Assembly (NCBI GenBank): GCA_963813715.1
Contig: CAWFAK010000007.1
Span: 704,001-768,000, forward strand
Length of the DNA: 64,000 nt
Origin: an uncultured Planctomycetaceae bacterium
GTDB lineage: Bacteria > Planctomycetota > Planctomycetia > Planctomycetales > Planctomycetaceae
Direction of reading: 5' to 3'
The notes under the pieces are model-generated. The model was given only the letters and a program-made list of their open reading frames with translations, had not been told where the DNA came from and searched no databases. Numbering within the stretch: the first letter of the stretch is position 1; every line of letters begins with the position of its first letter. Below, in pieces: positions 8,602 to 24,873 of the stretch. A program made the position numbers and the translations under genes.

Positions 8602-9450
8602 ATGAAGCTATCCCTTTCCGTACGCGTAGCCGAGGCGCCCTGCAAGACTCGTCTCAACGCTCCCTTCGCGGACGTCGTTGCGCTCGCGGCCGAGTACGGT
8701 TACGGTGCAATATGCATGCGGGCCAGCGCCGGCGGCGTGGGCACTCCGCGTGAGGAACTCGCGCGAATGCGTGACCAGGTCGAGCGCGCCAGTCTCGTCA
8801 TTTCGATGGTGACGGCGGACTCCGACGTACCGCTCAACAACGAGTATGGTCCGGATAGTCTGCGCAACATCGGCCCCAGTTTGGATGTGGCCGAGGCGCT
8901 CGGCTGCGATCTGATCCGTGTCTGCCTCAAGTGCGAGGCGGACGTTGAACCGGCCAAACGAGCCGCCGACCTGGCCGCGGTACGAGGAATTCGGCTGGCC
9001 CACCAGTGCCATACGACGACGCTCTTTGAAGAGGTCGAGCCGTCGATCGCGCTGCTGGAGCAGATCGACCGCCGCAATTTCGGGCTGATTTATGAGCCAA
9101 TCAATCTGTTGATCTGCGGACAGCCCTACGGTTTGAAAACGCTCGAGGCGTTTGCACCCTACCTGATGAACGTCTACTTGCAGAATCATCGACTCGATCC
9201 CAACGGACCGGCCTCACTCGAGACCTGGTGCCTGGGGGTGCGGCGCTTTCATCACATCCCGCTCTGGGAAGCGGGCGGCGTCGATTTTGCCGAAGTCATT
9301 CAAGCGTTGCGGGCGATTGGCTACACCGGCTACGTCACCGTGCACCAGGCCTACGCTGAGCTGATGGGCCCCCGTGAAGCGGCCGCCAAGAGCGCCGAAT
9401 ATCTGCGCGGGCTCGGAGGGTTCAGCCCGCCCGGGAGCGACAACCCCTGA
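8602..9450 (+). CDS. Sugar phosphate isomerase/epimerase family (xylose-isomerase-like TIM barrel)
   Basis: AAEYGYGAICMR, AEALGCDLIRV, GGVDFAEVIQALRAIGYTGYVTVH motifs. Confidence 0.75.
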   Translation: MKLSLSVRVAEAPCKTRLNAPFADVVALAAEYGYGAICMRASAGGVGTPREELARMRDQVERASLVISMVTADSDVPLNNEYGPDSLRNIGPSLDVAEALGCDLIRVCLKCEADVEPAKRAADLAAVRGIRLAHQCHTTTLFEEVEPSIALLEQIDRRNFGLIYEPINLLICGQPYGLKTLEAFAPYLMNVYLQNHRLDPNGPASLETWCLGVRRFHHIPLWEAGGVDFAEVIQALRAIGYTGYVTVHQAYAELMGPREAAAKSAEYLRGLGGFSPPGSDNP

Positions 9451-9455
9451 ATCGG

Positions 9456-10859
9456 TCAGGAGTGCTCGGCTGCGGCTGCAATCGGGCACAGGCTGTTGAG
9501 ATATTCTTCGAGATTTGTGAATCCATCCCCGTCCCGATCGCCATTGCGGTCGCTGGGATCGTCTGGATTGAGTCCGTGGCTGCGTTCCCAGTCGTCGGGC
9601 ATCCCATCGCCATCGCTATCCAGGGCCGCCAGCGTGCTGCGAAGTTGGGGCCATCCGCCCACCTGGTCCTGAGAGTCGATGAGTCGGCCCGTGCGGTCGC
9701 GAACTCCCTTCACCAGCCGCTCGTCGGCGGCGTCGCGATGGAGCGACGCCCCGGCGTGTTGCAGGACGCTTTGAAAGGCTTCCATTGCCGACTGCGTCTT
9801 CGGCAAGGCCCCGTCGACGTCGAACTCGCGATCGACGCGAATTCGGTCAAGCGACATGCGGCGATAACCGCCGTCGGCCCAGCGATCGAAGGTGATCGCC
9901 AGGTAGTTGTTCTCAGTGAAGGCCGCGTTACCCTCAAACGCGTTGCCGCTGAGAAACGCCTTGAGCTGGTCCTCGGTTCCGGTCTTCGTCGCCAACGGAT
10001 GATTGCGTTTGGGCGTGTCGGGGCCGGGAAGATAGCAGTTGTTGATGAAATTGATGTGAGCGTCGCCCAGGTTGGTGGCACCACTCAGGTTGTACACGAC
10101 ATTGTCGCGGTAATCGACGATCATGCCGGGCAGCGTTTTCTCGCCGCTGGCCAGAGTCGGGTGGCGATCGCGGCTGCTGGCGAACAGGTTGTGATGAATC
10201 GAAATGTTGCCGGTGAGGTCGCGGAACGACGACAGCATCGCGTGGGTTCCCTTGGTGTGGAGACTGTGATTGAGGCACTCCGCGTAGATCGACCATTGCA
10301 GCGTGAAGTTACTTCCGCGACGCAAGTCGTGATTGCTGTCGATCCCCCAGGTCGAAGTGATGTGGTCGAAGATGACGTGGTCGACGTCGTTCGTAGTGAT
10401 GGCGTCCGGGTCGCCGTGCGGCTTGTGCTGGTCACCCAGGCGGACGCGCAGGTAACGGACGATAATGTGCGAGGCCTTTCTGATCTCGAACGTCCAATCC
10501 TTCAGACACACGCCATCGCCCGGGGCAGTTTGCCCGGCAATCGTGAGAAAGGATTTGTTTACGACGAGCGGCTTCTTCAATTCGATCGTGCCCGACACGT
10601 CAAAAACGATAGTCCGCGGACCGGAGGCCGAGCGCATGCCGTGACGCAACGATCCGGGCCCGTCGTCGTTCAAGTTCATGACGTGATAAACGTCGCCGCC
10701 GCGCCCGCCGCGTGTGAATCGGCCGAATCCTTCGGCTCCGGGGAAGGCGAGCTGCATGGGTGCGTCCGCATGCGCCGAGCGAAGCCCCGTCAACAGCAGG
10801 GCGAGAACCAGCATCCAAGTGATAAAAGGGGCCCAGCGTTCGCGAACTGTCAGGGGCAC
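9456..10859 (-). CDS. Secreted pectate lyase (PL1-like) with C-terminal Ca-binding DxDxDG repeats
   Basis: Signal-like N-terminus, then AFPGAEGFGRFTRGGRGG..DDGPGSLR..PRTIVFDVSGTIEL..TIAGQTAPGDG; C-terminal DSDGDGMPDDWE..DRDGDGFTNLEEYLN. Start is GTG 10859 or ATG ~10814. Confidence 0.85.
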   Translation of the reverse strand: MPLTVRERWAPFITWMLVLALLLTGLRSAHADAPMQLAFPGAEGFGRFTRGGRGGDVYHVMNLNDDGPGSLRHGMRSASGPRTIVFDVSGTIELKKPLVVNKSFLTIAGQTAPGDGVCLKDWTFEIRKASHIIVRYLRVRLGDQHKPHGDPDAITTNDVDHVIFDHITSTWGIDSNHDLRRGSNFTLQWSIYAECLNHSLHTKGTHAMLSSFRDLTGNISIHHNLFASSRDRHPTLASGEKTLPGMIVDYRDNVVYNLSGATNLGDAHINFINNCYLPGPDTPKRNHPLATKTGTEDQLKAFLSGNAFEGNAAFTENNYLAITFDRWADGGYRRMSLDRIRVDREFDVDGALPKTQSAMEAFQSVLQHAGASLHRDAADERLVKGVRDRTGRLIDSQDQVGGWPQLRSTLAALDSDGDGMPDDWERSHGLNPDDPSDRNGDRDGDGFTNLEEYLNSLCPIAAAAEHS

Positions 10860-12290
10860 GAGGAATCTCCGGGCGGCAGCTTGCGTTGAGCTTCTTTCCA
10901 GATCGGCCCGTAGACTTCCTTGTCGAACGGCGGGCAACCCGTTGGGAATTGGCCAGCGGGATGAGCCCGGTTGCGCATCAGGTTGGTGCAATACGAGAAG
11001 GTTCGGCAGGTTCGACCATGATCGAGGCCGCCCTGCTCCTTGAGATTGCGCAAAATCGGGCTGCGCCAACGTCGCACGACCCAGTCCGACGATTGCGACT
11101 GAACCGTCGGTGACATTGGCCACCGCCGCCTGCAGCGCAAACTCCTGCAGCCAACTGTAGCCGCTGCCGACGACGGGCAGCTCGGGAACGGCCGCTTGAA
11201 CCGCGCGGGCCAGGCGAAAATGGCGGAGAACGCCCAACAGCGGATGTTCGGGCGCGTCGTAACCGTCGACCGGTGGATAATCGGCCGGCCGGACCACGTG
11301 CGGATTGACGTAGGGGTTGCCGGCGGTGACGTTGAGCAGGCTCACGCCGGCATCACGCAGGCGCTGTGCCAGCTCCAGGGGCTCTCGCAGATCCTCGATC
11401 TGGTGATCGTAGGGGTTGGTGCCGAACACATTTTCGAGCGGCAAGTGGTGCGGCGCCGGCTCACCGGCGGCTCCCACGGTTCCCTTGCGGTAGGCAATGC
11501 CGTCGTAGGCGTTGAATCGCGTGGCGACGATCAAAGACGGCAGCTCCTCGCGAATGCGAGCAACGATTTCCCGAACAAGCCGCGTCCGGTTCTCAAAGCT
11601 TCCGCCGAATCGGCCTGGCCGATTCCGGGCGGTCAGCAACTCCGAGAGCAAATAGCCGTGACACTGCTTGAGGTCGATGAAGTCGACGCCAATCCGGGCC
11701 GCGAGGCGTGCCGCGGCGACATATTGGTCGGCGATGCGTGCGAGGTCCTCGTCGGCGGCGAGCGGAAAGGAGTCATCGACTGGCCGGCCGCTGGCCTTGT
11801 CGATCGTGAGCGGATCGCGGATAGGATCGTGTGAAACCAGGAGCGTGCGGCGATATCCGTAGCGGCCCGAGTGCGTGAGTTGCAGACCGATCACCAAATC
11901 GTCGGCACTGCCGCACACTTCGCGATGAGCGCGGCGGCAACGGTTCAGCATGTCCTCGATCGACGCGGCTGTTCGGTCGCAGAGCCAAAGCTGACGGGGA
12001 TTGGCGCGCGCTTCGTCGCTGATCGCCGTCGCTTCGCCCCAAATCAGCTTGGCGCCGCCGCTGCCGAAGCGGACGTAGCGGCGGAAAGTCAACTCGTCGG
12101 GTCGGCCGTCGAGCGTGCCGTCGCAACCCTCCATCGGCTGAACGGCGAGGCGGTTGCCGCAGCGCTTGGGGCCGATTGCAATCGGTTGAAACAGGGCCTC
12201 GTATCGCTGGGAAAGCGACAGAGTGTGACCGAGGTGTGCGGCTTCGCTCGTCAGAGCGGCGGGCGTTTTGTAACGAAAGAAGCGGGCCAT
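10850..12290 (-). CDS. NADH:flavin oxidoreductase (Old Yellow Enzyme family), apparent frameshift near 11045
   Basis: NRLAVQPMEGCDG, GLQLTHSGR, DFIDLKQCHGYLLSELL, FGGSFENRTR. The C-terminus (CRTFSYCTNLMR...GCPPFDKEVYGPIWKE) is in the 10850..11140 frame. Confidence 0.85.
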
Positions 12291-12390
12291 GCAGCGAAAA
12301 ATCTTAGCCTCGGGTTGCCCCTCCGCCAACTCCTTCGCTTGTTGCCCGTTGGCGGCCGCATGCCTGAGCTCGGCACCGGACCACTCGCGC

Positions 12391-12463
12391 AAAAAAAACG
12401 CTGCCTGGGCTGACGTTGGCAAAGGGCCCATCTCTACCCAATGCCAACACAGTCCCAGGCAGC
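12391..12463 (-). terminator. Probable intrinsic terminator/attenuator hairpin
   Basis: GCTGCCTGGG..GTTGGCA / TGCCAAC..CCCAGGCAGC inverted repeat followed on the minus strand by G and T8. Confidence 0.65.
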
Positions 12464-13179: not shown

Positions 13180-14246
13180 GGAATCGCCCTTTTGAGGACA
13201 ACAACGACGGCCGCTCCCGGACCATCGCCAAAGAAGATTTCGCCGCCATGTGCTTCCACGATTTGCCTGGCGATCGTTAGCCCCAATCCAAGTCCACGCG
13301 GTTTGGTGGTGAAAAAGGGGACGAACACCATCTTCTTGTGCTCATCGGCGAGGCCGGGGCCGCGATCGCGGATGACGATCCGCAGAGCCGGCGATCCCGA
13401 AATCTCTGCCTCTTCGTACAACGCTTTGATCTCAGGACCGTCGGGACACGCGGCCAGCGAGTTCTCGAAGATGTTGCGAAACACCTGGCGGACGGCGAAA
13501 GCGTCGATCTCGCAACAGGTGTCGTCAGCCAGTTGCATTTCCAAAAGCTCGAGGTGCGGCATGTCCGGCTGCGTGAGCGCCTCCCTCCAAGCGGCGCGAA
13601 CGACGTTACGCGCATCGACCGTTAGGGGCTGCAGCACCCGCGGCCGCACGAATTCCAACACGGTTTCATGCAGACGATGAAGCTCCTCGGTCCCCGAGGC
13701 CAGCTTGGCGATCCCACACTGCACCTTGTCGACGTCGTGGGAATGCTTTTTCAGCTGGTGCACTGCCGCTTCCATGCGTTGCAACGAATTTCGGCTCTCG
13801 TGAGCGATTGTGGAGACGGCCTGCCCGATGGCCGCCAACCGCTCCATCAGTTCCCATTGAGTGGTGGCGCGGTCGTGCGACGTGTTGTCCTGCGCCAGCA
13901 AAGTCCAGAGCACGCGCCGCTCGAATCGCACCGGGGCGATCGTCGCCTGGACGGCAACCGAATGCCCGTCTTTCCGCAACAAGCGGAAAGGACGCGGGCT
14001 CTCGAGCTCGATGCCGAACCCCTCCGCCTCGTCACTTTGAATGGCAGCTAGAAACGAAAGCTCACATTCGCGCGGCAAGAGAGACAACATGTCGCGGCCA
14101 AGCAATTCGTTCGGGCCGTACAGCAGCAACCCCTCCGCGGCCGGGTTCGCCGCCTCGATCCGTCGATCTTCGCCGAACGTGACAATCGCGTCGTTGCCAG
14201 TCGAGCGGACTGAGTTCGCCAAAGGCAGTCTGAGAACGGAGCTCAT
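13176..14246 (-). CDS. Cytoplasmic PAS-domain sensor histidine kinase
   Basis: PAS (ANPAAEGLLLY..RKDG), H-box AHESRNSL, N-box NIFENS, DRGPG, PFFTTKPRGLGLGL. ATG at 14246; stop overlaps the regulator start. Confidence 0.85.
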   Translation of the reverse strand: MSSVLRLPLANSVRSTGNDAIVTFGEDRRIEAANPAAEGLLLYGPNELLGRDMLSLLPRECELSFLAAIQSDEAEGFGIELESPRPFRLLRKDGHSVAVQATIAPVRFERRVLWTLLAQDNTSHDRATTQWELMERLAAIGQAVSTIAHESRNSLQRMEAAVHQLKKHSHDVDKVQCGIAKLASGTEELHRLHETVLEFVRPRVLQPLTVDARNVVRAAWREALTQPDMPHLELLEMQLADDTCCEIDAFAVRQVFRNIFENSLAACPDGPEIKALYEEAEISGSPALRIVIRDRGPGLADEHKKMVFVPFFTTKPRGLGLGLTIARQIVEAHGGEIFFGDGPGAAVVVVLKRAIP

Positions 14247-14334
14247 AGTTCGTGTCAGCGTCCTGCGGCTCTTCGGGGCATAAGCATCGTGGAGGGTGAT
14301 TGTCCTGCTATGACTCAACCGTCCGTGCACGATT

Positions 14335-15960
14335 TCACTTGGAGATTCGGAACAAGTCGTCCGAGGGCGTGTCGTTGAAGTCGACGTACATTCGCGTAGT
14401 CTTCGCCCGATTTCCCGAGACGTCACGGAGAATGACCGTTGGGTACCAGAAGCCGCGCGGCGACTGGTCGAAATCCTTGAATCCAACGTCGGGAGGCTTA
14501 GACGCAGCGGCGATTTGCTCCGCACCTGCCGACGGGTCGCGATAGACGATCTTGACCGCGACACTGCCCATGCTGGGATTCAGCCAGTATGTCGCGTCCA
14601 GTGCAATTGGCTTCCGAATGGTTGGATCCAAAGAAACGTCCACCTTGATTAATTCCTGATTGCCAACCGTTTGATGGTTAACCTCAAAGTGGCGGTCTAG
14701 TGCCCTGAAAGGGAAGGTTGGACGGCAACACAGCTCAGGAACGTTAAGAGTCTGCCCCAGGAAGTCCGCCTGAGAATCCTCTTTCACCGGAAAGATCTGA
14801 AGAGGTCCGTCGCTGGAGACCTTCTCTCCCCATGTAAAAACGCCGATGGTGTGACCATCGCAAATTGCGACGGGGCTAAATCGAAATTGTTTCTTGTTCG
14901 CATGCCAGGCCTTCAGCGCCTCGTTTTGGTCCACGGGCAAAACGAATTGCGCGTCTGCGGGCTTGACGTCGTCTATGCGCCACTTATTACCCCGGCGCAG
15001 CACCCGTTTCGGATCGCACCGACTCAACGGCCGAGGGGTATCGAATCTCGCGGTGACGGACAACGCTGAATAGTCGTCGAAGCCCTCCCGGCCTTCTTGC
15101 AGCGTTTGAGCAATGTCCGGCAATTCACCCGATTCATCGACGTCCCTCGCTTGGACCCCGACTGGAATCCCCAGCGACGATCGGTCCGCCAAGCCCTTGA
15201 TTGGGTAGTCGAAGTAGCAGGTCGTCGTGTGCGACGCGGCTTCAGTGATCGCAAGAGAATACGGCAGTGAAGACCGCTTATCGATCGTGAGAACGAGCGT
15301 GATTGCCCCACGGTCGGCGGGCCGCACGACAATCTGATATTCGTCGCAGGGTTTTCCGTCGATCATTTGGCTTTTCAGACTCCATCGCTCGATCCGCTCG
15401 TCCGGCAACAGCGACGGAGCAGAGGGAGATCGCCGAAATACCGCGGCTAGGTTTGATACGGACGAGAGTTCCTGCGTCAGTCGCGCGTTCCCTGGCCGAA
15501 CGGCACGGTAAAGGATTTTGCGCTTCTCGTCATAACGTAAGAACACATTGTTCGTGTAATCGAAGAGCAAAGCGGTCGTCGATAGCCTGCCTCCGATCAC
15601 GTCCAGACCCGGCGATACCCACAACTCGCCTTTTTCGACGTTGTCTCGCACGATGCGCGCGTGAATGCACGCTTGCGCACGGGCCCTCCGGATCGCAGAC
15701 GCCCAGGCCGGTTCGCTGTTGAAAAACCAAACGGTCCCCAAGACCACTGCCGATAGGCCAACCGCAAAGACTGATGCGAGCATGATTCGATGTTTCGAGC
15801 GCATGCGGAGGGGCTGGACAGCCACGGCCACGCTTAGCAGTCGACTCCGCAAATCTGCGGCGTACTCCGCCGACGGGCCGGACCGCACTCGGCTTTCGGA
15901 AAGCGCCGTCTTCAGCACTTCCATTTCCTCCGCGTCAAATTCGTCGGGCCGAGTGCTCAT
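14335..15960 (-). CDS. Putative anti-sigma factor: single TM with a large periplasmic LolA/RseB-like region
   Basis: Coupled (ATGA-type overlap) to the ECF sigma gene. Short cytoplasmic helix (PSAEYAADLRSRLL), TM, then beta-rich region (IDGKPCDEY..LTIDKRSSLP; YWLNPSMG..GFWYPT..PSDDLF). Confidence 0.65.
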   Translation of the reverse strand: MSTRPDEFDAEEMEVLKTALSESRVRSGPSAEYAADLRSRLLSVAVAVQPLRMRSKHRIMLASVFAVGLSAVVLGTVWFFNSEPAWASAIRRARAQACIHARIVRDNVEKGELWVSPGLDVIGGRLSTTALLFDYTNNVFLRYDEKRKILYRAVRPGNARLTQELSSVSNLAAVFRRSPSAPSLLPDERIERWSLKSQMIDGKPCDEYQIVVRPADRGAITLVLTIDKRSSLPYSLAITEAASHTTTCYFDYPIKGLADRSSLGIPVGVQARDVDESGELPDIAQTLQEGREGFDDYSALSVTARFDTPRPLSRCDPKRVLRRGNKWRIDDVKPADAQFVLPVDQNEALKAWHANKKQFRFSPVAICDGHTIGVFTWGEKVSSDGPLQIFPVKEDSQADFLGQTLNVPELCCRPTFPFRALDRHFEVNHQTVGNQELIKVDVSLDPTIRKPIALDATYWLNPSMGSVAVKIVYRDPSAGAEQIAAASKPPDVGFKDFDQSPRGFWYPTVILRDVSGNRAKTTRMYVDFNDTPSDDLFRISK

Positions 15961-16544
15961 AGGCGTGCACCCCCCTGTTGAGGTGCTGGTGCAAAATAAG
16001 GCCCCAGCAACGTCCGCAAGCGCGTCCGAGCGCGCGATAGCGACGACTCGACGGCTTTAGCCGTTGTTTTCATCGCCGTCGCTATCTCCTGAACCGAACG
16101 ACCATCGACATATTTCTGTCGCAGGACCACCTGGTGAGATTGTGGAATGGCCGTGAACGCCGCCCGCACGAGTTGCAATCGCTCGACACGCTCCATCACC
16201 TCTTGCGGAAGAAGGAGGGCGTCGTCAGCCAGTTCGATCGACTCCGCGTTCTCCGATACAAAGGCGCTCGACAAGCGGCGAAAATGCTGCGCCACTTGCA
16301 ATCTGGCAATGCCAAACAGCCAATCGCGCAACTCGCCTCTCGCAGGATCGAACCCTTTAATGCTGGAAATCGCCTGCAGCCAGACTTCCTGGTTCAGGTC
16401 CTCGCATAACGTCCTGTCGCCGTCCACGAGATGGCTGACGAAGGCGTAGATTTCGTTCAGATGCGCGTCATACAACGCCCTCCACGCTGCTCGATCGCGA
16501 CGTGCGAGCAATTGCAGAAACGCGTCATGCGACGAAGCTGGCAT
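15957..16544 (-). CDS. ECF (sigma-70 family) RNA polymerase sigma factor
   Basis: AWRALYD, EDLNQEVWL, WLFGIAR (region 2); DGRSVQEIA..AVESSLSRARTRL (region 4). Confidence 0.9.
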   Translation of the reverse strand: MPASSHDAFLQLLARRDRAAWRALYDAHLNEIYAFVSHLVDGDRTLCEDLNQEVWLQAISSIKGFDPARGELRDWLFGIARLQVAQHFRRLSSAFVSENAESIELADDALLLPQEVMERVERLQLVRAAFTAIPQSHQVVLRQKYVDGRSVQEIATAMKTTAKAVESSLSRARTRLRTLLGPYFAPAPQQGGARL

Positions 16545-16740
16545 TTGGCTGTCGTACTCGGCTGCTGCTGATCGGTCGACCAGACTCTATTTGCGCGAGA
16601 GCGCGGAATCCTTCGCACAATTTACGAAAAAGACGAAAGTCGGTCGCATCCCGGCTTATCCGTGCAAACCGGCTCCGTCAGGAGACTTCCCACAGGTAGC
16701 TAGGCGTACATGCGGGTAAACACTCACCCGAGGTCTTCTT

Positions 16741-18052
16741 CTAGCTGGGCGCCGGCGATCGTCGGCGACGCCACAAAAGTCCAGTCCCCAGGACGACCAG
16801 TGCCCCGGCATTAAGCAACAGCAAGTGGCGCCAGATGCCACGGCCACCTACTCCGGCAGGAAAGGGCTGTATTTCTCCATTGATAATCGGATTGGCCCGC
16901 GCGATTGCCTCGTCGAGCAAGTGTTCGCCGTGCGGAACGAAATAGGACCTATTGAGAATCAGATCCTGGACGTTAGTGCCGGGGGGGAAGTCGAGCTCGA
17001 AAACGTCATCCGGAACATTGTTGACGTTGATGTTCTCGATCGTAACGGTGTGCACCTCCGTCAGCATCCCCTGCGTATTCGCGGGCTCCAGCGATCCTGC
17101 AAAATCGAGCCGATAACACCGGTGCGGCAGCCAGATGGTGTCACCATATTGGCGCAAATCCTTGTTGGCATAGACGAACGCAAGCACGGGCATGCTGCTG
17201 AGGTTCCGCATTTGAAACCACAGCCGACGCCGCATCGCGAAGCCATTCTCCGTATCGATCCAGATGGTGTCGGCCCCGTTCGTGACCACGTGACACGGAA
17301 AACCGTCGACCTCCTGGAGAGTCGGTAGCACTCGATAGACGGATGGCAAGCTCAGTGCGGTAGGCACGTACCAGGCCGACTCACGTTGTCGAGCTGCGTT
17401 GGCCCCCGTCGGAATTGAAATTGAGTCGAAGTACCACACCAGCCGTGAATCCACCGCGTCAAGTTTCGCTGGATGGATGTGGCCAAGCGAACGGGTTGGC
17501 TCGAAGGCTTTCATTTGCGTGCCATTGAAGGCGTAATCGAACTCCGGCAATGGCCTCGTTCGCCGCTTACTCGCTGAGTTCTCTGCAGTCTTAATCGCAA
17601 ATCGGCCGGGCGTGGTCTCGCGAATATGGGTGAACCGCTTCTCGCCCTTCATCGCGACGCGCGCTTTCGAACGAGAAGTTAGCGGGGACCGCATGCTTTT
17701 GTCGCTTTTGCGAAATCACACGAGCCGTTTCAACCTGCCTCTGTAATGAATATTGGAACGACACTTCGATACTCTCGACGCGGCCCGCCAAGCCATCTGG
17801 CCGTCGTAGAGTTCCTTTAGGGAATGCGTGGCTTTTCTGTTCGCTTGCCGCACGTTTTGCCATTCGAGGTGATCCAGCCCTCGTTGGACTTCTTCGTAAC
17901 TACCGACTTGTCCGGAAAGGCCGACGTATCGCGTCGGCGACTTCCAATCTTGCGCGTGCGGTGACAAACCCGTCCAACATGACCACCAGGACCCCCATGC
18001 CGCCAAGCTTGAGAATCCCCAACCATGCCAATCGTCTCGCCTCGACTCCCAT
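16741..18052 (-). CDS. Exported LolA-like beta-rich protein with C-terminal TM anchor and basic tail (about 3 apparent frameshifts in the 5' part)
   Basis: ATG ~18052 gives a signal-like MGVEARRLAWLGILKLGGMGVLVV. The reading continues through three frames into ORF 16741..17694 (EVDGFPCHVV..IWIDTENGFAMRR..INVNNVPDDVFELDFPPGT..LLLLNAGALVVLGTGLLWRRRR). Confidence 0.6.
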
Positions 18053-18158
18053 CGGCCCGCACTCCTCCAGGTTTCCGATTCGCTTTTTGGCGCACTGACA
18101 GACTTGTTCGCCTTCAACAGCCCGGTTGCAGTATTTCAGCGGACTCGCGAGGGCTTGG

Positions 18159-19373
18159 CTATTTCCGGTCGCGAGACGGTCTCATCCGCTCGTCGGAATT
18201 GCGCGCGACCTCTGCCAGAACGGTCGGGTGATCCGTCAACAAGGCCCGTTGGAGCACGCAGGCGGCGTGCGAATAAGCACAGTAGTCCCTTTGGATAGTC
18301 GTCGAGTCCGATCGCTTGAGCGCATCGATCAAAAACTGGAGGGCGTGCGAAACACAAACGCTCGATGGCCTCAAAGAAACGGGCACGATCTGGATCCACT
18401 CGAGCTGATGTCCGGTAATCCGCACCAGGTCCTCGCCGCGAATCGTCTCGGCGGCTCGGTTGTCCGTGACAGTCGAAACACGGTTCGCCCAAAGAGGACT
18501 CCAGGCGCCGTTGGGCAGCTGCGAGCTTTCGAGCAAGCGACTGGATCGCGACAAGTAGACCTCGCATCGTCGCCGGAGATCCGCCGAGATACTGCGGGAG
18601 GCGTGTCGCAATAGGAAGGCCAGCGTCAATTGCTTGTGAGTTCCTCCACAGGAACCGCTGTCGAGCGGCAGCGCAAGAATGGCCTCAGCCATCGATTCAT
18701 AGGAACAGGTCTCACCGAAGCGATTTTCCCACTGCGGTTCGTCCGGCAAATATCCGCAGAAGGCGACCAGCGACCAACAGACTTCCTGGCTCGCGTCAAA
18801 ACTGCGGCGCGACGCATCGAGGAGTTCGCCGACCGTAAACGAGCCGAAATTGCTCTCAACGGATAAGCCCAAAGGGACACCAATCTCCGCACACGTAGCG
18901 AGGAATTGGTCGACATGATGTTCGTACTCCCAGTGGTCCTGGACATTGGGGGCGGTGCGCTGCCTCACATCCCAGCCATAGGGGGAACGGAAGAACAAAG
19001 GCGGCGACCTGGGAAACGTTCGACGAAAGTCTGCCTGACCGAGCACGCGACCCACTTCGCGCTGCAATTCGAGGTTGGCTGGAAAGGCACCCGCCAGACC
19101 CTCGAAGCGCCAGCGGTGAAAGTAATCCGACGCTCGTAGCGGCTGAGTCACGACGTATTTGGTAATAGCCTCCGCAGCCGAGACCTTCACCTCGGCGGCG
19201 AAAATGGGATTCGGCGAGGGTGGAGCGATTTGCCCAAGTTCTGTCGGGCTCTTGGGAACTCCGGAAGGACCGAGCCACATTTTGACCCCTAGAGTCGCGG
19301 CGACTCCCACGACAGCCATAGCGACAACTAAAGATGCCACCCGGTTAGTGGTCCTCAACCTGTCGGAGATCAC
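18159..19373 (-). CDS. Membrane-anchored putative alpha/alpha-toroid (prenyltransferase/cyclase-like) protein
   Basis: GTG overlaps the upstream stop. N-terminal TM, then motifs EHHVDQFLA, SCGGTH, QLPNGAW (QW-like), TGHQLEW, CAYSHA. Confidence 0.55.
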   Translation of the reverse strand: MISDRLRTTNRVASLVVAMAVVGVAATLGVKMWLGPSGVPKSPTELGQIAPPSPNPIFAAEVKVSAAEAITKYVVTQPLRASDYFHRWRFEGLAGAFPANLELQREVGRVLGQADFRRTFPRSPPLFFRSPYGWDVRQRTAPNVQDHWEYEHHVDQFLATCAEIGVPLGLSVESNFGSFTVGELLDASRRSFDASQEVCWSLVAFCGYLPDEPQWENRFGETCSYESMAEAILALPLDSGSCGGTHKQLTLAFLLRHASRSISADLRRRCEVYLSRSSRLLESSQLPNGAWSPLWANRVSTVTDNRAAETIRGEDLVRITGHQLEWIQIVPVSLRPSSVCVSHALQFLIDALKRSDSTTIQRDYCAYSHAACVLQRALLTDHPTVLAEVARNSDERMRPSRDRK

Positions 19374-20227
19374 GCGCGGTGACCTCCGGGCGCCGGATCC
19401 GCGGGCAGAATGGACACGCGGATTGGGTATGTTAAGACCTCGCCGTCGACCGTAACCCGGACCGGCAACAGAACGTCCTGCCGCTTTTGAGCGACGTTGT
19501 CCTGCGGATTGACTCCCAGCGTGAACGAGCACTCTCGTCGCACATAATTTGACGTTTCGACGGACGGCCCAACGCGGATGTCCTGGACGACGAGTACGGA
19601 TTCCAGTCCGGTCCCGCCCAGTGGCACATCAACCTTTGGCTCGCTCGAAGAGGCCTTGAGAAACAGGGTGCCGACGATCGACGCGGTTCGCGCGACCTTG
19701 GCACGGCCGCCGATCATGTACGTGTAGTTTGGAAAATTGGCGCCGAGTTCGATGGCGTGGACACTGAGCGCTTCCGCCCAGGACCCGCCCTCTGCCTCGA
19801 CGTAAACCCGTGCATCCGCCGGGCCGGCGTGGCGCGGCCTGGACCGCATCATCATATGCACACTGGTCGATGCGCCCGCGACGAGCGTCTCCTGTTCCAA
19901 GCGCGCTTCGGTGCACCGACAAGTCGGCGATCCGAGATGCAACCGAACCGTCGAGTTACCCTGATTTTCGATGCGGAAAAGCCCCTCGGCAGCGCCGTCA
20001 CGCGGCAACACACCAAGATCGGCTTCGGTATTCCACGCAACCAGCCGGAGTGCATCTGGCGATGGTGTTCTCGCGACGATTCTGTCAGCGGACGACGCCG
20101 ATCGTTGAACGGAGCGGCCGACATTCGCCGGCAGAGCCGAGCATCCCAATGTCAGACAGCTGACTAACAGACTGGCGAGCGATTGGCGCGGCGCCGCAAA
20201 AACGCAGGTCGATGGCAAAGCGCCCAA
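19370..20227 (-). CDS. DUF1573-like Ig-fold lipoprotein (start uncertain)
   Basis: Lipobox-like LLVSCLTLGC; DLGVLP..FRIENQGNSTVRL..PTCRCT motif typical of DUF1573. Confidence 0.65.
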   Translation of the reverse strand: MGALPSTCVFAAPRQSLASLLVSCLTLGCSALPANVGRSVQRSASSADRIVARTPSPDALRLVAWNTEADLGVLPRDGAAEGLFRIENQGNSTVRLHLGSPTCRCTEARLEQETLVAGASTSVHMMMRSRPRHAGPADARVYVEAEGGSWAEALSVHAIELGANFPNYTYMIGGRAKVARTASIVGTLFLKASSSEPKVDVPLGGTGLESVLVVQDIRVGPSVETSNYVRRECSFTLGVNPQDNVAQKRQDVLLPVRVTVDGEVLTYPIRVSILPADPAPGGHRA

Positions 20228-20853
20228 CGTGCGAGCGGAAAGCCGCCAATCGACACCGACGCTGCGATGACACACCACAGAGCGACTTCCAACCTGCGAT
20301 GCGAAGACATCTTGCGCGATTCGGGCAAGATCAGATAACCACTCCAACAGCGGACGAATTGACTGCGAGACACCGTTTCGATCGAAGCGGCATAGTTCGG
20401 TTCGATGTAGCGCACTGAACGGTCATCAATCTGCAGCACGAGCAGGAAGTGCCCGATGGCATTGTTGGTTTCGCGACGGGGCAAGACGTGCGCGATTAGT
20501 GGAGTGGCGAAATGATCGAGATCCCGCGGTTTCGCTCGCAAAACCGTTGCCGAAACCCCCAGTGCCGCTAATCCCTCTTGTAGGCCAAGCAAGGAACTCC
20601 CGCCTTTTTCGATCGGAATAGCGGCAACGGCGTCGTCGTAGGTGATTTCGCTACCAAGAAGGCGTGCCAGCATATAACCGCAGGCCACGCCGCAGCTTTG
20701 GGCTTCGCGCCAATGGTGATTATGCGCTGCCCCCCGTGCATCGACCTGACGAGAACCGCCAGTACTCGCCTCTCCGTGAGTTCGAATGAAGGTGATTGCA
20801 CTTGCGACGATTGCAATCAGAGCCCAGCGGCGATGGAAGGTCGTAGAAAGCAT
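20164..20853 (-). CDS. Stand-alone C39-like cysteine peptidase with N-terminal signal and C-terminal TM
   Basis: QSCGVAC (catalytic Cys), GSSLLGL, PLIAH..GHFLLV..VRYIEPN, FVRCWSGYLI. No ABC-transporter domains. Confidence 0.8.
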   Translation of the reverse strand: MLSTTFHRRWALIAIVASAITFIRTHGEASTGGSRQVDARGAAHNHHWREAQSCGVACGYMLARLLGSEITYDDAVAAIPIEKGGSSLLGLQEGLAALGVSATVLRAKPRDLDHFATPLIAHVLPRRETNNAIGHFLLVLQIDDRSVRYIEPNYAASIETVSRSQFVRCWSGYLILPESRKMSSHRRLEVALWCVIAASVSIGGFPLARWALCHRPAFLRRRANRSPVC

Positions 20854-20960
20854 GAGAGCGGCTCGGCGGCTAGGCAGACAGTATTTCTGAGGTCGGCTCT
20901 GGGCAATTCAATAACGCCGTTACCAACCAGCAAGCATGCCACGCGATATGGGGGACCTTC

Positions 20961-21407
20961 TCAAGTCCCACTGCATCCCTGTTGGTCGAGATCAAAAGGC
21001 GCCGGACCGCACTCGACACTTGAGGAATTCAGGCATTGGCAGCAAGGCATGATCACTCCCGTAACCGAGCAAAACGTTTCGGTGCAAGTTGCTTGCGTCG
21101 CCGAGTCACACGCGTCTTGCACCAACGCGCCAGTAAATGTCCCGGATCCGCCATAGCTCGAGGTGGCACCGCACGCATATGAACATAATCCGTCGCAGTC
21201 CGAAGTCGCAGATGTGCAGGTGTCAGTCGCAGAATCCGTGCAAGCGCTATTCGACGTCGATTGATACGAGCCACACTGCCCTCCGCGAATGCTCGCCGCG
21301 GTCGTGGCTGAAACCTCGACGACGTCCCCCGGCAATCGATCCGCTGACGGGAGAATGGCAAGGGCCGCAGATGCGAGGGCAAAGGCAAAGACTGAGACGC
21401 GAGACAT
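20961..21407 (-). CDS. Secreted Cys/Ser/Thr-rich precursor protein with double-glycine-type leader
   Basis: GAGGAG RBS; Sec-like signal MSRVSVFAFALASAALAIL; EVSATTAASIRGG| motif; 105-aa core with 14 Cys. Confidence 0.8.
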   Translation of the reverse strand: MSRVSVFAFALASAALAILPSADRLPGDVVEVSATTAASIRGGQCGSYQSTSNSACTDSATDTCTSATSDCDGLCSYACGATSSYGGSGTFTGALVQDACDSATQATCTETFCSVTGVIMPCCQCLNSSSVECGPAPFDLDQQGCSGT

Positions 21408-21760
21408 TTTTCTACTCCTCCAGAAACCGAAGTTCCTTACGGATCGTCAAATCTTGGAGCACGTAGGCAGTCCACTGACGCGGTAGCCACCGTTCAGCCG
21501 AGCGCAATGGCACGACGTTCGACGGTCGAGGCGTCAACGAAATCTCGGTTGGATCGGAACTCAGCTAATGATCCAGGCGTAGATCGCCCGGAGCATTGGT
21601 GATTCCTATTCCTGCGCAAAGGCCGCGCACGCTTTGCCGGCGCCTTGGACAAGGCTCGGCGGCACGAAGATGCGCTCATCCGAAAGAAGCAGCCCGCGGC
21701 GACGACCAACCAGGGTCGTTCGCGCCATTTCCGTCCAGCCATTGGTCCGGAACTGGGAAC

Positions 21761-21810
21761 ATCCTGATGCGATGATCTCGGAATGTCAAACAAAAACGAC
21801 AAAAAAATCG
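21761..21810 (-). promoter_or_regulatory. Candidate sigma-70 promoter for the precursor operon
   Basis: TTGACA (21789-21784)-N17-CAGGAT (21766-21761), preceded by T-tracts resembling an UP element. Confidence 0.4.
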
Positions 21811-21919
21811 GGGAAGCTGGAAAGTTATCGAGCAATCATTTTCCACCCACCATCACGAGCGACGACCAACACTCCACTGGATTCCACGAGATGCCAATTG
21901 TTCGGAGAGCGTCTCCAAT

Positions 21920-22189
21920 CTACTGATCACCCGGATGAGTTGACCGCGCAACAACATCGACGATGTCGCCGATGGTGCGCAAACCGATCGCCTGTTCGTC
22001 CGAGATCTGCATCCGCCACCGGTTCTCCAGCTCGAACCGCAACTCGAGAAGATCCAAAGACGCCAGGCCAACGTCCTCGATGATGTGTGATCCTTCCGTG
22101 AGATCAGTGAGCTTGGCTCGACCGTTGGAGGCGAGAGCTAACGCCGGCTTCAGTTGCTCGATGATCCGACATCGTTCGTCTTCGCCCAT
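21920..22189 (-). CDS. Acyl carrier protein
   Basis: Small acidic protein with EDVGLASLDLLELRFELE..ISDEQA..LRTIGDIVD (phosphopantetheine Ser in LASLD). Confidence 0.85.
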   Translation of the reverse strand: MGEDERCRIIEQLKPALALASNGRAKLTDLTEGSHIIEDVGLASLDLLELRFELENRWRMQISDEQAIGLRTIGDIVDVVARSTHPGDQ

Positions 22190-22343
22190 TGATGCAAATC
22201 CAGTCACAGATTAAGTTCCTGCCCGCGCGGTCGGGAACTCGTTCGAATGAGCCCGGTAGTATTCAAATCCTACCCCGCGCATAATTCAACGACCTCGCCT
22301 CGCTTGAAACTCGCCCCATCGTGGGACACGGCCACTCCTCGCC

Positions 22344-23768
22344 ATGCCGTTCAATTCCCTGGTTTTCCTCCTGTTCTTCCTGATCGTGGCACTCGTGCAC
22401 TCCCTGCCGCTGCCGGTGATCGTCCGCAAGCTTAACTTACTGATCGCGAGCTACGTGTTCTACGCGGCCTGGGACGTGCGCTATCCCCTGCTGTTGGCCT
22501 TCTCCACGCTGGTGAACTTTGGTGCCGCCGCTCTCATTCAAAATTGCGAAGGAAAGACTCAGACACGGCGCACGGTGCTGTGGATCAGCGTGCTTTTAAA
22601 CTTCGGTCTGCTGGCCTGCTTTAAGTATGGCAATGAGTTTCTCTCGGCCTGGGGACTGCTGGCAGACCGACTGCGAATCGCTGAACCTCCGCAGGTTACG
22701 ATTCTGCTGCCAATCGGACTGTCGTTCTTCACGTTTCAGGCCATGTCCTACACGATTGACGTCTATCGCCGCCAATTCCGACCGACGTCGTTGTTGGACC
22801 TGGCGATCTTTGGCTCGTTCTTCCCCGTGCTCCTGGCCGGGCCGATTTTGCGAGCCGGGCAGTTCATTCCGCAGTGCACCCCGCCGCGACGGGCCACGGG
22901 TCGTGAGTTCTGCTGGGGACTCTCGCTGCTCACCCTGGGCCTGTTCTTGAAGGTCACGCTAGCCGATCATTTGCTTGCGCCGATCGCACAACAGGTGTAC
23001 GACCTCAGTCTGCGACCCGACACGCTCAGCTCCTGGACAGGCACACTGGTCTTCGCGGCTCAGGACTATTGCGACTTCGCGGGCTATTCGACGTGTGCGA
23101 TGGGCATTGGCCTATGCCTTGGCTTCGTGCTGCCGGCCAACTTCCGCTCCCCATTGGCATCGATCGGCTTTCGCGATGTATGGCAGCGCTGGCATATCAC
23201 GCTCGTCGTCTGGATGCGCGACTATGTCTTCAATCCTCTAGGCGGCGTCTTCAAAGGATATGCCCGCGCCGCACTCAATGTGATAATCGTGATGCTCCTC
23301 ATCGGAGTTTGGCACGGCGCGACGGCCACCTTTTTGATCTTTGGCTTTCTGCACGGATCGTTCTTGATCGGCGAGACATTGCTGCAACGTACGCGGCTGC
23401 GTCGACTGCCTGTCTGGGCAACGCCGTTCGGGAAGTTCGTCCTCTGGGCGGTCACTATCATGCTGTGCCTGGTCGCGTTCGTCTTCTATCGGGCGGCCAA
23501 CCTCGAGCAGGCTCGTTGGATATTGGCGTCCATGGCCGGCTTCCCCAGCGGTGTCGGGAGCTTCGGCCTGACGGATCACGATCTGTTGATCGGACTCGTC
23601 ACTGTCGAGTGTCTGATCGTCGCCCACTGGGTCGTGCGCAACCAGAATCTCGAAACGGCCGTCGCACGCATCCCTTGGTGGAGCGTTTCGTTCGGACTCG
23701 CGGCGATGTTGGTGGCCATCACACTGAGTTCGGGCGAATCGCAGACCTTTTTGTATTTTCAGTTCTGA
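22344..23768 (+). CDS. MBOAT family O-acyltransferase (AlgI/DltB-like)
   Basis: MPFNSLVFLLFF, ASYVFYAAWD, LPIGLSFFTFQAMSYTIDVYR, YCDFAGYS, WQRWHITL, IGVWHGA, FLYFQF. Confidence 0.92.
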   Translation: MPFNSLVFLLFFLIVALVHSLPLPVIVRKLNLLIASYVFYAAWDVRYPLLLAFSTLVNFGAAALIQNCEGKTQTRRTVLWISVLLNFGLLACFKYGNEFLSAWGLLADRLRIAEPPQVTILLPIGLSFFTFQAMSYTIDVYRRQFRPTSLLDLAIFGSFFPVLLAGPILRAGQFIPQCTPPRRATGREFCWGLSLLTLGLFLKVTLADHLLAPIAQQVYDLSLRPDTLSSWTGTLVFAAQDYCDFAGYSTCAMGIGLCLGFVLPANFRSPLASIGFRDVWQRWHITLVVWMRDYVFNPLGGVFKGYARAALNVIIVMLLIGVWHGATATFLIFGFLHGSFLIGETLLQRTRLRRLPVWATPFGKFVLWAVTIMLCLVAFVFYRAANLEQARWILASMAGFPSGVGSFGLTDHDLLIGLVTVECLIVAHWVVRNQNLETAVARIPWWSVSFGLAAMLVAITLSSGESQTFLYFQF

Positions 23769-23810
23769 GAGTTTTCCGCTGCTCCAAACTGTCATGACCT
23801 CAACGGACTC

Positions 23811-24873
23811 ATGAGTTCATCCGCAACGACGCCCGGGACAACTCCGACCACGCCGTCCGGCACGGCGCGCGAGGACACGTCGCGACGGTTGCCGGAAGCG
23901 CGGGTCTACCTCTTGGGTCTCGTACTGTTCGTCGGGATGATCGGTGCGCTGGAGGTATACTGGCGGGGACGAGCGTTCGAACCCAACGTTCCGGATTCCC
24001 CGGACCTGTGGGCCTATCACTGGTCCCGAGTCGTCGGCAACGATCCCAATCTGATCGTCGCCATCGGCACGTCGCGCATTCGCACCGCTGTGCGGCCGGA
24101 CGTGATTCAGGAGCGTCTCCCTTCCCAACGACTAATTCAACTGGGAGTGAACGGGCCCTCCGGATCGCTCGGTCTACTGGCCGAAATCAGTCGCATTCCG
24201 CATTTCCGCGGTCTCGTTCTCTGCGACTTGCTTCCGCCCCTGATGGCACCCGAGCAAGGGCGTGAACAGGTCGCCATGGCTCGTAGGCCGAATACCACGG
24301 CACACACTTTGAATACCTACTTGCGTTCGTTGCTGTGTGACCGACTGGTCGTCCTCAACTCGGCATTATCCGTTCGCAATTGGTTTGCACAGCGCGACTC
24401 GTTTCGTCCGGAGAGTGTCGGTCCGCGCCTGCGGGTCCACGCGGATCGGACTCTCGAGATTAGTTATCCCACGGACGAAGCGCTCGAAGACGATTCGTGA
24501 GAACCGTTTTCGCGACTACGCCGGCCGCTACTCAAAGGCCCGTCGTTACAAGAACATGGACGAATTCCGGGAAGCGATCCGCGACGTGGCCGACTCGGTG
24601 GCCCGCATAAAACAAAACGGCGGCAAGGTCGTGTTCTTGCGGTTACCAGCAGCCGGCGCCCGACTGCAACTCGAAGAAGCGACCTATCCTTCTGCGCTCT
24701 ATTTCGGGGTGTTGGCAGAAACAACTTCCGCGCCCTGGATCGACTTTCGCGAGCTCTCGCACGAAGACGATCTCGACTGCCCCGATGAGTCACATCTATC
24801 CGCGGACTCCGCCCCGGTCTTTACAAGTCGCCTCGTCGAAAGGCTGCGCCGCGGCTCGCTCCTGGGCCAATAG
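23811..24873 (+). CDS. Membrane-anchored SGNH/DltD-AlgJ-like protein (apparent frameshift near 24490)
   Basis: N-terminal TM, IGTSR (block I), and in the shifted frame GGKVVFLRLP and CPDESHL (DxxH). Directly follows the MBOAT gene. Confidence 0.7.

Follow-up and report, generated by a model that had tools for sequence, protein, structure and literature searches.

Double-glycine leaders and C39 peptidases are familiar from the ABC-driven export of bacteriocins, quorum signals and RiPPs, where the leader is cut on the cytoplasmic side of the membrane. The locus described here raises the question of whether such a leader can be read on the opposite side, by a C39 peptidase without an ABC exporter. 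It lies at 14335..21407 on the minus strand of the window (the whole 64,000-nucleotide stretch of soil planctomycete DNA that we analyzed), and the coordinates below are positions in the window.

A row of six co-oriented genes

As the original prediction stated, the genes at 14335-21407 are all co-oriented (ORF list). It counted seven of them; we find six, because in each of 6 related loci C39 and DUF1573 share one reading frame of about 490 aa. The row comprises a precursor, a C39-DUF1573 fusion, a toroid protein that we call g4, a LolA-fold protein that we call g5, an ECF-type sigma factor and a putative anti-sigma factor. Overlapping stop and start codons had also been reported, and two are found: ATGA at 15957-15960 joins sigma to anti-sigma, and GTGA at 19370-19373 joins the fused gene to g4, the TGA of the former overlapping the GTG start of the latter. 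Every product except sigma had been said to carry a signal peptide or membrane anchor, and each of them does have at least one hydrophobic segment in a Kyte-Doolittle scan; our topology and signal calls rest on hydropathy (Kyte-Doolittle) and charge.

In the assembled window, the reading frame is disrupted in two of the six genes. The C39-DUF1573 gene is split by the lack of one base at approximately 20185, and g5 has indels at 17951 (2 bases), 17778 and 17665, all three within 290 bases. If these four indels were real, the fused gene and g5 would be pseudogenes and the system would be dead in this strain, as the 1-base gap and the cluster of breaks in g5 could suggest. However, each of the four indels falls in a GCGC-type run, two further public runs (X1 and X3) have contigs that read unbroken at all four places, and JGI contigs with 99.6% identity also read through the sites. 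The assembly, with 82.6% completeness in only 18 contigs, would moreover fit widespread indel errors. We consider it unlikely that the system is dead. Metatranscriptome contigs from three libraries of three studies cover 30, 22 and 16 of 30 bins, which is a hint of expression only, as RNA-library contigs can hold DNA, and one that spans several genes does not prove a single transcript.

The precursor has a double-glycine leader behind a hydrophobic N-terminus

The precursor gene (20961..21407, 148 aa) has a Shine-Dalgarno-like GGAGG upstream of its ATG, and its 23 database relatives mark it as a real, conserved gene. We aligned 20 of these 23 with the window sequence (alignment A1). The protein begins with a Sec-type hydrophobic N-terminus (residues 1-21, approximately 21345-21407), continues with a double-glycine leader that ends in I-R-G-G (residues 22-43, approximately 21279-21344), and ends with a core of 105 aa that has 14 conserved cysteines (residues 44-148, 20964-21278). 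The leader is not at the very N-terminus, since a hydrophobic segment (residues 3-22) comes first. In A1 the motif at the presumptive cut site, I/V-R/K-G-G-Q-C-G, shows little or no variation; of the cysteines, 13 are invariant and the 14th is nearly invariant.

Across the window's family and other genera the leader follows the pattern V-[ST]-x-x-E-A-x-x-[IL]-x-G-G in register, with hydrophobic residues at -12 and -4, S or T at -11 and G-G at -2/-1; most relatives have E at -8, where the leader of the window has T. It matches, also in register, the class II bacteriocin leader consensus LSXXELXXIXGG, as tabulated in PMC1538908. The precursor matches no Pfam or NCBIfam family at E ≤ 0.1, known double-glycine leader models included, and no PDB sequence at E ≤ 1. 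A search of the cluster with Pfam and NCBIfam found no known modifying enzyme for the core peptide; by inference only, g4 and DUF1573 are candidates for that role. The product could be a bacteriocin-like mini-protein, rich in disulfides, that is secreted or resides in the envelope and evolves under diversifying selection, although we propose this with considerable doubt.

A C39-DUF1573 fusion with a predicted periplasmic peptidase domain

The gene downstream of the precursor (19370..20853) encodes a membrane-anchored, predicted periplasmic C39 peptidase fused to DUF1573. The intact form (L009:8610-10094) has 494 aa, in the order signal/TM1, C39, TM2, basic loop, TM3, DUF1573 and a C-terminal part without an assigned family. 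The C39 domain (approximately 20314-20706), already recognized in the original prediction, matches PF03412 at 66.5 bits (E = 2.7e-18; cut-off 22), and the intact fused form scores 64.2 bits. The Ig-like DUF1573 domain, with its C-R-C motif (approximately 19760-20032), had been assigned to a lipoprotein of its own. The domain itself is there (PF07610, E = 1e-7, 32.3 bits against 26.1; 31.3-39.9 bits in intact orthologs), but we rejected the separate lipoprotein, since the hydrophobic stretch ascribed to it corresponds to TM3 of the fused protein. C39 and DUF1573 are the sole domains matched in the 494-aa protein, which shows no ABC membrane domain or ATPase. PF03412 and PF07610 are both present in 13 of 22 database relatives, and the fusion is limited to this genus among the genomes searched.

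Peptidases of the C39 family have Asp as their third catalytic residue and, upstream of the catalytic Cys, an oxyanion Gln. By alignment, the catalytic Cys and His of PCAT1 (4ry2) have their counterparts in Cys54 and His135 of the fused protein, both of which are invariant in all 13 subfamily members. The third catalytic position is Glu in this genus (Y-I-E-P) and Asp in most other genera in alignment A7 (Glu in locus L112), and six residues before the catalytic Cys the oxyanion Gln is absent and W-R is conserved. Both departures, like the T at -8 of the window's leader and the lack of a match to known leader models, weigh against the reading that we favor below. We predict that the C39 domain faces the periplasm and is tethered to the membrane. 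Because the loop between TM2 and TM3 is basic, DUF1573 would sit on the same side as C39. In A7 all eight single-domain homologs have a C-terminal span followed by basic residues.

A complex prediction for the C39 domain and the leader scored 0.44, against 0.01 for the best control (run agreement at least 57%, partner pLDDT at least 48, self-made input alignments). The mark for such predictions is reached by 116 of 157 solved complexes and by 2 of 215 mismatches, and passes at or below 0.60 are weak; the predicted complex thus lends weak support to recognition of the leader, and may reflect likeness to solved PCAT-substrate complexes.

A search of the assembly (82.6% complete) for an ABC-fused C39 or PCAT found none; it contains two C39 matches only, with open frames of 247 and 289 aa. 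None of 40 sampled relatives has an ABC domain at E ≤ 1e-4. The family is large, with 485 representatives at 50% identity matching at E ≤ 1e-30.

Leaders of the same kind recur beside C39 genes in other genera

We surveyed 18 loci outside this genus, each with a short non-ABC C39. In 12 of them an adjacent small ORF combines a hydrophobic N-terminus, a GG-type leader and a Cys-rich core unrelated to that of the window; the usual leader ending is G-G, with a single locus showing G-A and a single locus showing G-Q. The remaining 6 are either short contigs or the ends of contigs. The original prediction named homologous C39/DUF1573 clusters without a Cys-rich double-glycine ORF as a finding that would refute it, and what we see in these 12 loci is the opposite. 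We also searched 600,358 bases (6294 ORFs) with a composite pattern, a hydrophobic stretch followed by [ED][AG]xx[ILMVFT]xG[GA] and at least 5 Cys. It has 9 matches, every one within about 2 kb of a C39 gene, and none away from C39 genes in the same bases. In the cases seen, cores range from 54 to 105 aa and from 6 to 14 Cys. Natural fusions also occur–for example, C39 with rhodanese, beside MauE, and a double C39 with a g5-like domain (P0159; hhalign probability 97.5, E = 5.7e-12).

A periplasmic C39 without an ABC exporter has a precedent in FapD of the Pseudomonas Fap amyloid system, for which a signal-sequence swap and a C38A mutant showed Sec export and activity in the periplasm (PMC5557850). 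According to that paper, its target is not a canonical double-glycine leader peptide, and its substrate was not identified. By analogy, the C39 of the window could be a protease that matures other envelope proteins, with g5, g4 or the anti-sigma factor as possible targets; the small Cys-rich proteins would then be secreted neighbors or cofactors instead of the substrate. The fusion of C39 with g5-like domains would fit such a role, as would the second C39 of this genome, which is FapD/FilB-like (3e-26 and 4.6e-23, below the cut-offs) and lies beside a gene matching FapF (3.5e-12). But the C39 of the window does not match the FapD and FilB models (NF058616, NF050078) at E ≤ 0.01 and differs in this from FapD and from the stand-alone FilB/PA2778-type C39 peptidases that NCBIfam names, and its cluster has neither a FapF-like barrel nor amyloid subunits. 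In addition, the double-glycine leader stands in register before unrelated cores in the 12 loci, and its strict pattern occurs nowhere else in 600 kb. We regard other envelope proteins as quite unlikely to be the target.

We think it probable, instead, that the locus processes double-glycine leaders in a periplasmic form of the reaction that depends on Sec. The original prediction of Sec export followed by extracytoplasmic maturation by C39, with no PCAT, draws support from these 12 loci and from the failure to find a PCAT in the 82.6%-complete assembly. It also held that no pathway of this kind had been characterized. For the gene set and the substrate we likewise found no published description, but for the enzyme the statement needs qualifying, as FapD is a characterized periplasmic C39 (PMC5557850).

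Two membrane-anchored proteins accompany the peptidase

The g4 protein (18159..19373, 404 aa) is an N-terminally anchored (alpha/alpha)6-toroid, a fold whose enzymes include GH105/GH88, terpene cyclases and thioester domains. Residues H86, H153, E197, C242, G244, H246, G289, H322 and H369 are invariant in its family (alignment A4, 21 sequences). The alpha/alpha-toroid fold proposed earlier holds at the fold level: in VIA-align the AF2 model (pLDDT 85.1) matches (alpha/alpha)6 barrels, with Z 17.8 to GH105 4xuv and Z 16.1 to squalene cyclase 1gsz, and Z declines from 17.8 to 12 over 50 rows with no gap setting one family apart. Foldseek with the same model returned nothing at E ≤ 0.001, and g4 has no Pfam family. 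Genes like g4 adjoin C39 in 9 of 13 order-level loci. For the best matches of g4 elsewhere, tblastn found no C39 in 9 of 10 fetched loci; since most relatives elsewhere lack C39, g4 may be a looser associate of the module.

The g5 protein (16741..18052; 437 aa when intact, L009:11412-12722) has a LolA fold between N- and C-terminal membrane helices. Its earlier description as a LolA-like anchored protein stands as to fold (Foldseek match to 3buu, E = 1e-7), whereas the start proposed at 17694 is really at 18052. With the AF2 model (pLDDT 75.8), Foldseek gives 26 matches at E ≤ 0.001, including 3buu, LolA3 (9tp6), LolB and RseB, with the LolA type on top. Pfam and NCBIfam searches with g5 gave no family match. 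Genes like g5 adjoin C39 in 9 of 18 loci; in the g5 alignment, 3 of the 21 rows were placed by position rather than score.

An ECF sigma factor adjoins the module in this genus

The ECF-type sigma factor (15957..16544, 195 aa) is assigned, in agreement with the original prediction, by Sigma70_r2 (E = 1.5e-12), Sigma70_r4_2 (1.2e-7) and TIGR02937 (78.5 bits against 42.9). The ATG of the putative anti-sigma gene (14335..15960, 541 aa) overlaps the TGA of sigma, and its product is predicted to have a 57-aa cytoplasmic N-terminus, one membrane span (58-80) and about 460 aa in the periplasm. Its earlier naming as an anti-sigma factor derives from position and single-span architecture; in Pfam and NCBIfam it matches no family, and none of the recognized anti-sigma domains such as ZAS or RskA. 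The C-terminus resembles the g5 family (hhalign of alignment A6 against A5, probability 85.9, E = 5.3e-6, 54 columns).

Could the module be chiefly for signaling, with C39 or the freed core controlling the anti-sigma factor by regulated proteolysis or ligand sensing, so that the cluster is an ECF signaling unit and not a product pathway? The translational coupling of sigma to the putative anti-sigma at the 3' end of the row is in keeping with this, as is the likeness of the anti-sigma C-terminus to g5, among whose LolA-fold matches are RseB and MucB, partners of anti-sigma factors. The arrangement recalls the RseB/MucB-RseA/MucA-sigma-E systems, in that the genes for an ECF sigma and a single-span anti-sigma lie next to one for a periplasmic LolA-fold protein. 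Unlike RseB/MucB, however, g5 is anchored at both ends, has no sequence-family match, and belongs to the C39 module in genera without a nearby sigma. Using the sigma and anti-sigma of the window as tblastn queries, we found no match beside the module in the 18 other-genus loci, and Pfam scans of 8 of these (L066, L102, L105, L106, L108, L110, L112 and L078) found no sigma domain. Signaling therefore cannot be the core function, and we rate a chiefly signaling module as very unlikely. Because the ECF pair adjoins the module in this genus only, among the loci examined, we see it as an add-on to a leader-processing module and not part of its core. Through this pair the module is probably coupled to transcription, given the likeness of the anti-sigma sensor part to g5.

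Comparison with PCAT exporters and bufferins

The PCAT/AMS exporters (PCAT1, ComA, LahT) share PF03412 and the aligned catalytic Cys and His with the C39 of the window, and their substrates share the LSXXELXXIXGG register. The combination of a conserved leader with variable cores is likewise the logic of bacteriocin and RiPP families. In contrast to PCATs, the protein has no ABC transporter domains and no ABC-fused C39 was found in the assembly; the C39 is predicted to be periplasmic and membrane-tethered, and has no Gln where the oxyanion residue normally lies; the leader follows a Sec-type signal instead of starting the protein; and the partner genes encode (alpha/alpha)6 toroid and LolA-fold proteins. 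Bufferins are small, Cys-rich, periplasmic RiPP precursors with a Sec signal that are modified by MNIO enzymes in the cytoplasm. We know of no double-glycine leader or C39 in bufferin systems, and by Pfam there is no MNIO-type enzyme in the present cluster.

A model for leader processing in the periplasm

In the model that we propose, Sec would insert or export the 148-aa precursor by means of its hydrophobic N-terminus. The C39 domain of the three-span membrane protein would then recognize the leader, V-S-x-x-[E/T]-A-x-x-I-R-G-G, on the outer side of the cytoplasmic membrane, and cleavage after G-G would free the 105-residue core with its 14 cysteines. The core would fold through disulfides, perhaps aided by the fused DUF1573 with its C-x-C, and the membrane-anchored g4 toroid and g5 LolA-fold proteins may act on the product or hold it. 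The ECF sigma/anti-sigma pair would be an addition in this genus only. The gene models, domains, folds, leader motif and recurrence of the module are observed, and from them we infer the topology, the cleavage site, the disulfides, the roles of g4, g5 and DUF1573, and the regulation.

More broadly, and tentatively, this may be one instance of a widespread Sec-dependent pathway of Planctomycetota that has gone undescribed. In such a pathway, hypervariable, disulfide-rich mini-proteins would stay at the membrane, held there by a double-glycine leader, until cut loose by a C39 that faces the periplasm. Lineage-specific fusions for oxidative folding (DUF1573 with C-x-C, or rhodanese with MauE) would take part, and toroid, LolA-fold and often PMT-type glycosyltransferase partners would finish the product or carry it. 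With a LolA-like sensor joined to the anti-sigma factor, the pathway would report to an ECF sigma in this genus.

The proposal is directly testable, because the precursor and peptidase genes are adjacent and small. If it is true, mining rules that demand a PCAT beside a double-glycine peptide miss a whole class of secreted Cys-rich products, and for FapD-like periplasmic C39 enzymes there would be a model whose substrate can be identified. A leader code would be read in the periplasm by a large membrane-anchored C39 family of 485 clusters, and the planctomycetes would be a candidate source of new disulfide-rich, possibly glycosylated, mini-proteins.

Gene structure of the cluster

The row of minus-strand ORFs at 14335-21407 of the window was originally predicted to hold seven genes, with the C39 peptidase and the DUF1573 protein encoded separately. 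Both domains were recovered in a library scan (Peptidase_C39, PF03412, E = 2.7e-18; DUF1573, PF07610, E = 1e-7), but in 6 of 6 related loci, taken from public genomes and metagenomes, they form a single ORF of approximately 490 amino acids. Because C39 and DUF1573 are one gene in the relatives, our corrected model of the cluster has six genes: the precursor, the fused C39-DUF1573 peptidase, two genes that we call g4 and g5, an ECF sigma factor (Sigma70_r2/r4_2 and TIGR02937, above cut-off, in agreement with its original name) and a putative anti-sigma factor. Overlapping stop and start codons, as predicted, are seen at two junctions (GTGA at 19370-19373 and ATGA at 15957-15960), and the other intergenic gaps are 107, 106 and 196 bases.

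Relative to the related loci, the window is missing one base from a GCGCGC run at ~20185, in the fused gene. In a nearly identical locus, L009 (99.57% identity to the window over 13,941 columns), g5 encodes 437 amino acids from a start equivalent to position 18052, as against 317 in the ORF listed for the window, where the gene has indels at 17951, 17778 and 17665. Taken at face value, these four indels would be real mutations that break both genes, which we consider improbable: contigs from two public sequencing runs, X1 (DNA) and X3 (an RNA library), have an unbroken reading at 4 of 4 places. We infer instead that the breaks in C39-DUF1573 and g5 are assembly errors at GCGC-type runs.

The window differs by seven indels in all from the 99.57% identical metagenome contig (17665, 17778, 17951, 20185, 22296, 22325 and 24486), and the four within cluster genes sit in GCGC-type runs. 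The pattern resembles a systematic error of assembly, which may have split further genes in this genome. On the minus strand at 9456-12431 there is a 991-residue ORF whose two halves seem unrelated by eye: the N-terminal one is oxidoreductase-like, the C-terminal one looks secreted, and a hydrophobic linker connects them. It could be another fusion made by the assembly.

By Pfam scan, the cluster is flanked downstream by a histidine kinase with an ANTAR response regulator, and upstream by an ORF with a weak PP-binding match and a divergent MBOAT gene. The upstream ORF is ACP-like (E = 0.0019, below cut-off) and lies, within 21920-24500, next to the MBOAT gene and a 229-residue ORF without a family. 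These three genes accompany the cluster in close relatives, and we take their layout to resemble a Dlt/AlgI-type acyl-transfer set.

The precursor and its leader

The precursor ORF, g4 (as a 457-residue ORF), g5 (as the 317-residue ORF) and the last ORF have no Pfam or NCBIfam family, and the precursor also had no match among PDB sequences, which were searched with a profile. PADLOC gave no match to the six cluster proteins. In the ESM Atlas we found only unnamed Planctomycetota clusters, whose Pfam-bearing neighbors (~0.8) serve as leads only. The precursor has 23 database relatives of about 148 residues each and no paralogs in its own genome (other matches, E ≥ 0.2), and its profile, run against 201 genomes of the order, matched two, both of this genus and one of them the window's own.

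We aligned the window's protein with 20 of the 23 relatives. The hydrophobic stretch at the N-terminus is variable. Around the predicted cut site a block (A-A-x-I/V-R/K-G-G-Q-C-G) is invariant or nearly so, and 13 cysteines are invariant with a 14th nearly invariant. Counting back from the G-G, the leader has V at -12, S, T, P or A at -11, A at -7 and I or V at -4; position -8 is E in most relatives and T in the window. The leader is in the same register as the class II bacteriocin consensus, given in a table of PMC1538908 as LSXXELXXIXGG.

A C39 peptidase predicted to face the periplasm

In alignment, Cys54 and His135 of the peptidase fall on the catalytic Cys and His residues of PCAT1, a peptidase-containing ABC transporter (PCAT), and are invariant in 13 subfamily members. 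At the third catalytic position this genus has Glu and most of the other aligned genera have Asp; no Gln was seen at its usual place ahead of the catalytic Cys in the C39 alignment. Hydropathy and charge give the order N-terminal signal-like segment, C39 domain, TM2, Arg-rich loop, TM3, DUF1573, and 8 of 8 single-domain homologs aligned have basic residues after the span that follows the C39 domain. The C39 domain would thus be on the periplasmic side of the membrane. When the C39 domain was modeled in complex with the leader, the score was 0.44 as against 0.01 for the best control, which is weak support for an interaction.

As originally claimed, there appears to be no PCAT: none was found in the assembly (completeness 82.6%), whose only two C39 domains are each in a short ORF. 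At E ≤ 0.001 a profile of the C39 subfamily matched 17,620 representatives, of which 485 remained at E ≤ 1e-30; the best 150 were mostly proteins of 360-525 residues with two matched stretches or of ~200-260 residues with one. All of a sample of 40 representatives had Peptidase_C39, none had an ABC domain and 2 had DUF1573.

The half of the protein made up of DUF1573 and the C-terminal part had no match in a PDB sequence search. Selenoprotein forms of DUF1573 carry a U-G-C motif, according to a table in PMC9312934; the window's domain has C-R-C in the matching region, where the two motifs may correspond, and this likeness gave rise to the idea of a redox role. In a search of 401 genomes of the phylum the fused protein had no close relative beyond the genus, where C39 or DUF1573 matched only weakly (best E = 4.9e-9).

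Double-glycine ORFs beside C39 genes in other genera

A distant C39 gene in another genome, G004, lies in a row of similar order to the cluster: a g4-like gene, a 122-residue ORF, a double C39 with membrane spans, and two proteins anchored by their C-termini. The 122-residue ORF encodes a signal, then the leader V-S-A-A-E-A-A-T-I-L-G-G, then eight cysteines. A search of 201 genomes of the order with this C39 protein as the query gave short non-ABC C39 ORFs in 17 of them, representing 9 of 62 genera.

The original prediction was open to refutation if homologous C39 clusters lacked a Cys-rich ORF with a GG motif. Such an ORF is present at 12 of the 18 loci outside the genus, as a small protein that has a hydrophobic N-terminus and, in the same register, a leader (ending in G-A in one case and G-Q in another), and whose unrelated core has 6-14 cysteines. 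No precursor was seen at the remaining six loci, but each of these is a short contig or the end of one, so the absence says little. The control, a strict composite pattern, matched 9 ORFs out of 6294 across 600,358 bases, and every match was within about 2 kb of a C39 gene. A strict regular expression for the leader had matched only one locus (L066) of the first set, so a looser composite pattern was needed. The proposed route, Sec export followed by C39 maturation outside the cytoplasm without a PCAT, has therefore passed this comparison of predicted proteins.

Partner genes of the module

By TBLASTN, g4-like genes adjoin C39 in 9 of 13 order-level loci, and g5-like genes in 9 of 18 loci. The folds originally guessed for both proteins were upheld. 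The g4 model is an (alpha/alpha)6 toroid (pLDDT 85.1) whose best VIA-align match is a GH105 enzyme (Z = 17.8), with a match list that declines gradually by way of GH88, terpene cyclases and thioester domains to transcobalamin; Foldseek found nothing at E ≤ 0.001. Because the matches are graded across families, we assign the fold alone. Five His, one Cys and one Glu are invariant in the g4 family, which suggests an active or metal site. All 15 genomes sampled from the taxonomic family contain g4 relatives, with 1-5 matches each, mostly distant from C39 genes, and in TBLASTN searches 9 of 10 loci of the best g4 relatives lacked C39, g5 and sigma genes, so a g4 gene alone is no marker of the module. 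The protein g5 has a fold of the LolA superfamily (pLDDT 75.8, Foldseek E = 1e-7); in its alignment, 3 of the 21 rows were picked by position only.

Natural fusions tie the parts of the module together. C39 is fused to DUF1573 in 13 of 22 relatives; elsewhere in the phylum, in a different family, a C39-rhodanese fusion adjoins a MauE gene; and a protein of 923 residues combines two C39 domains with a C-terminus like that of g5 (probability 97.5). A candidate of 881 residues, P0119, gave no support for a g5 fusion (probability 20 against the g5 profile). The rhodanese fusion is at locus L078 (7637-11067, plus strand), where a precursor is followed by a LolA-like protein, a C39 domain fused via two membrane spans to rhodanese, and a MauE-family membrane protein; it is a second instance in which the peptidase carries a redox-type domain. 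In many relatives the C39-like domain is present twice, or a second C39-like gene stands in tandem, as at L066 8891-10078 (minus strand). The second copies at L110 10918-11538 and L112 9158-9931 have no Pfam match, and the second copy may be a C39-like domain without catalytic activity.

PMT/PMT_2-type GT-C glycosyltransferase genes adjoin the module in 5 of 7 other-genus loci scanned (L102 12886-14649, L105 4992-7619, L108 7711-9441, L110 14084-15946 and L112 12347-13960), and the Ser/Thr-rich cores are possible targets of glycosylation. In the window's genome there are 23 PMT_2-type matches, none of them in the window.

Regulatory genes and expression

At none of the 18 other-genus loci did the window's sigma and anti-sigma factors, used as TBLASTN queries, have a match beside the module. 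The anti-sigma factor is similar at its C-terminus to the g5 family (probability 85.9, 54 columns). A scan for sigma-70-type promoters gave 0 sites, an ECF-type -35/-10 motif search upstream of the sigma and precursor genes gave no match, and terminator-like sites are scattered uninformatively within genes. Contigs from three metatranscriptome libraries cover the cluster, a hint of expression only. One spans the DUF1573 part, C39 and the precursor, and another the anti-sigma, sigma and g5 genes, which proves neither transcription nor one shared transcript.

Four orthologous loci retain a GCGC...GCGC inverted repeat just upstream of the sigma start (~16560-16600, minus strand), a candidate operator or 5' hairpin. 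At 220-290 bases ahead of the precursor gene, a block of ~75 bases (~21625-21700, minus strand) is also conserved in DNA sequence across four orthologous loci. A multi-stem fold is predicted for it, with a covariation term of only -0.06, compensatory change in 2 of 23 pairs and no Rfam match; Rfam gave no match at E ≤ 0.1 over 14000-22400 of the window.

Relation to known systems

The window's genome has a second C39 gene, at L016 9633-10424 (plus strand), encoding a signal-bearing protein of 263 residues that resembles FapD (3e-26) and FilB (4.6e-23), both below curated cut-offs. Its neighbor (7938-9554, plus strand) resembles the FapF amyloid transporter (3.5e-12, also below cut-off), and on these similarities the pair may be a Fap/Fil-like fiber system in a planctomycete.

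FapD is described in PMC5557850 as a C39 peptidase able to work in the periplasm. The cluster's C39 differs from FapD and FilB in matching neither model and in its partner genes. With PCAT-type C39 peptidases it would share its chemistry, differing in that it has no transporter and is predicted to lie on the other side of the membrane. A full-text literature search, covering few of the subscription journals, found no description of this gene set. The cluster is a real and recurrent variant of double-glycine processing, apparently an undescribed one, and its predicted biogenesis route is well supported by comparison among genera.
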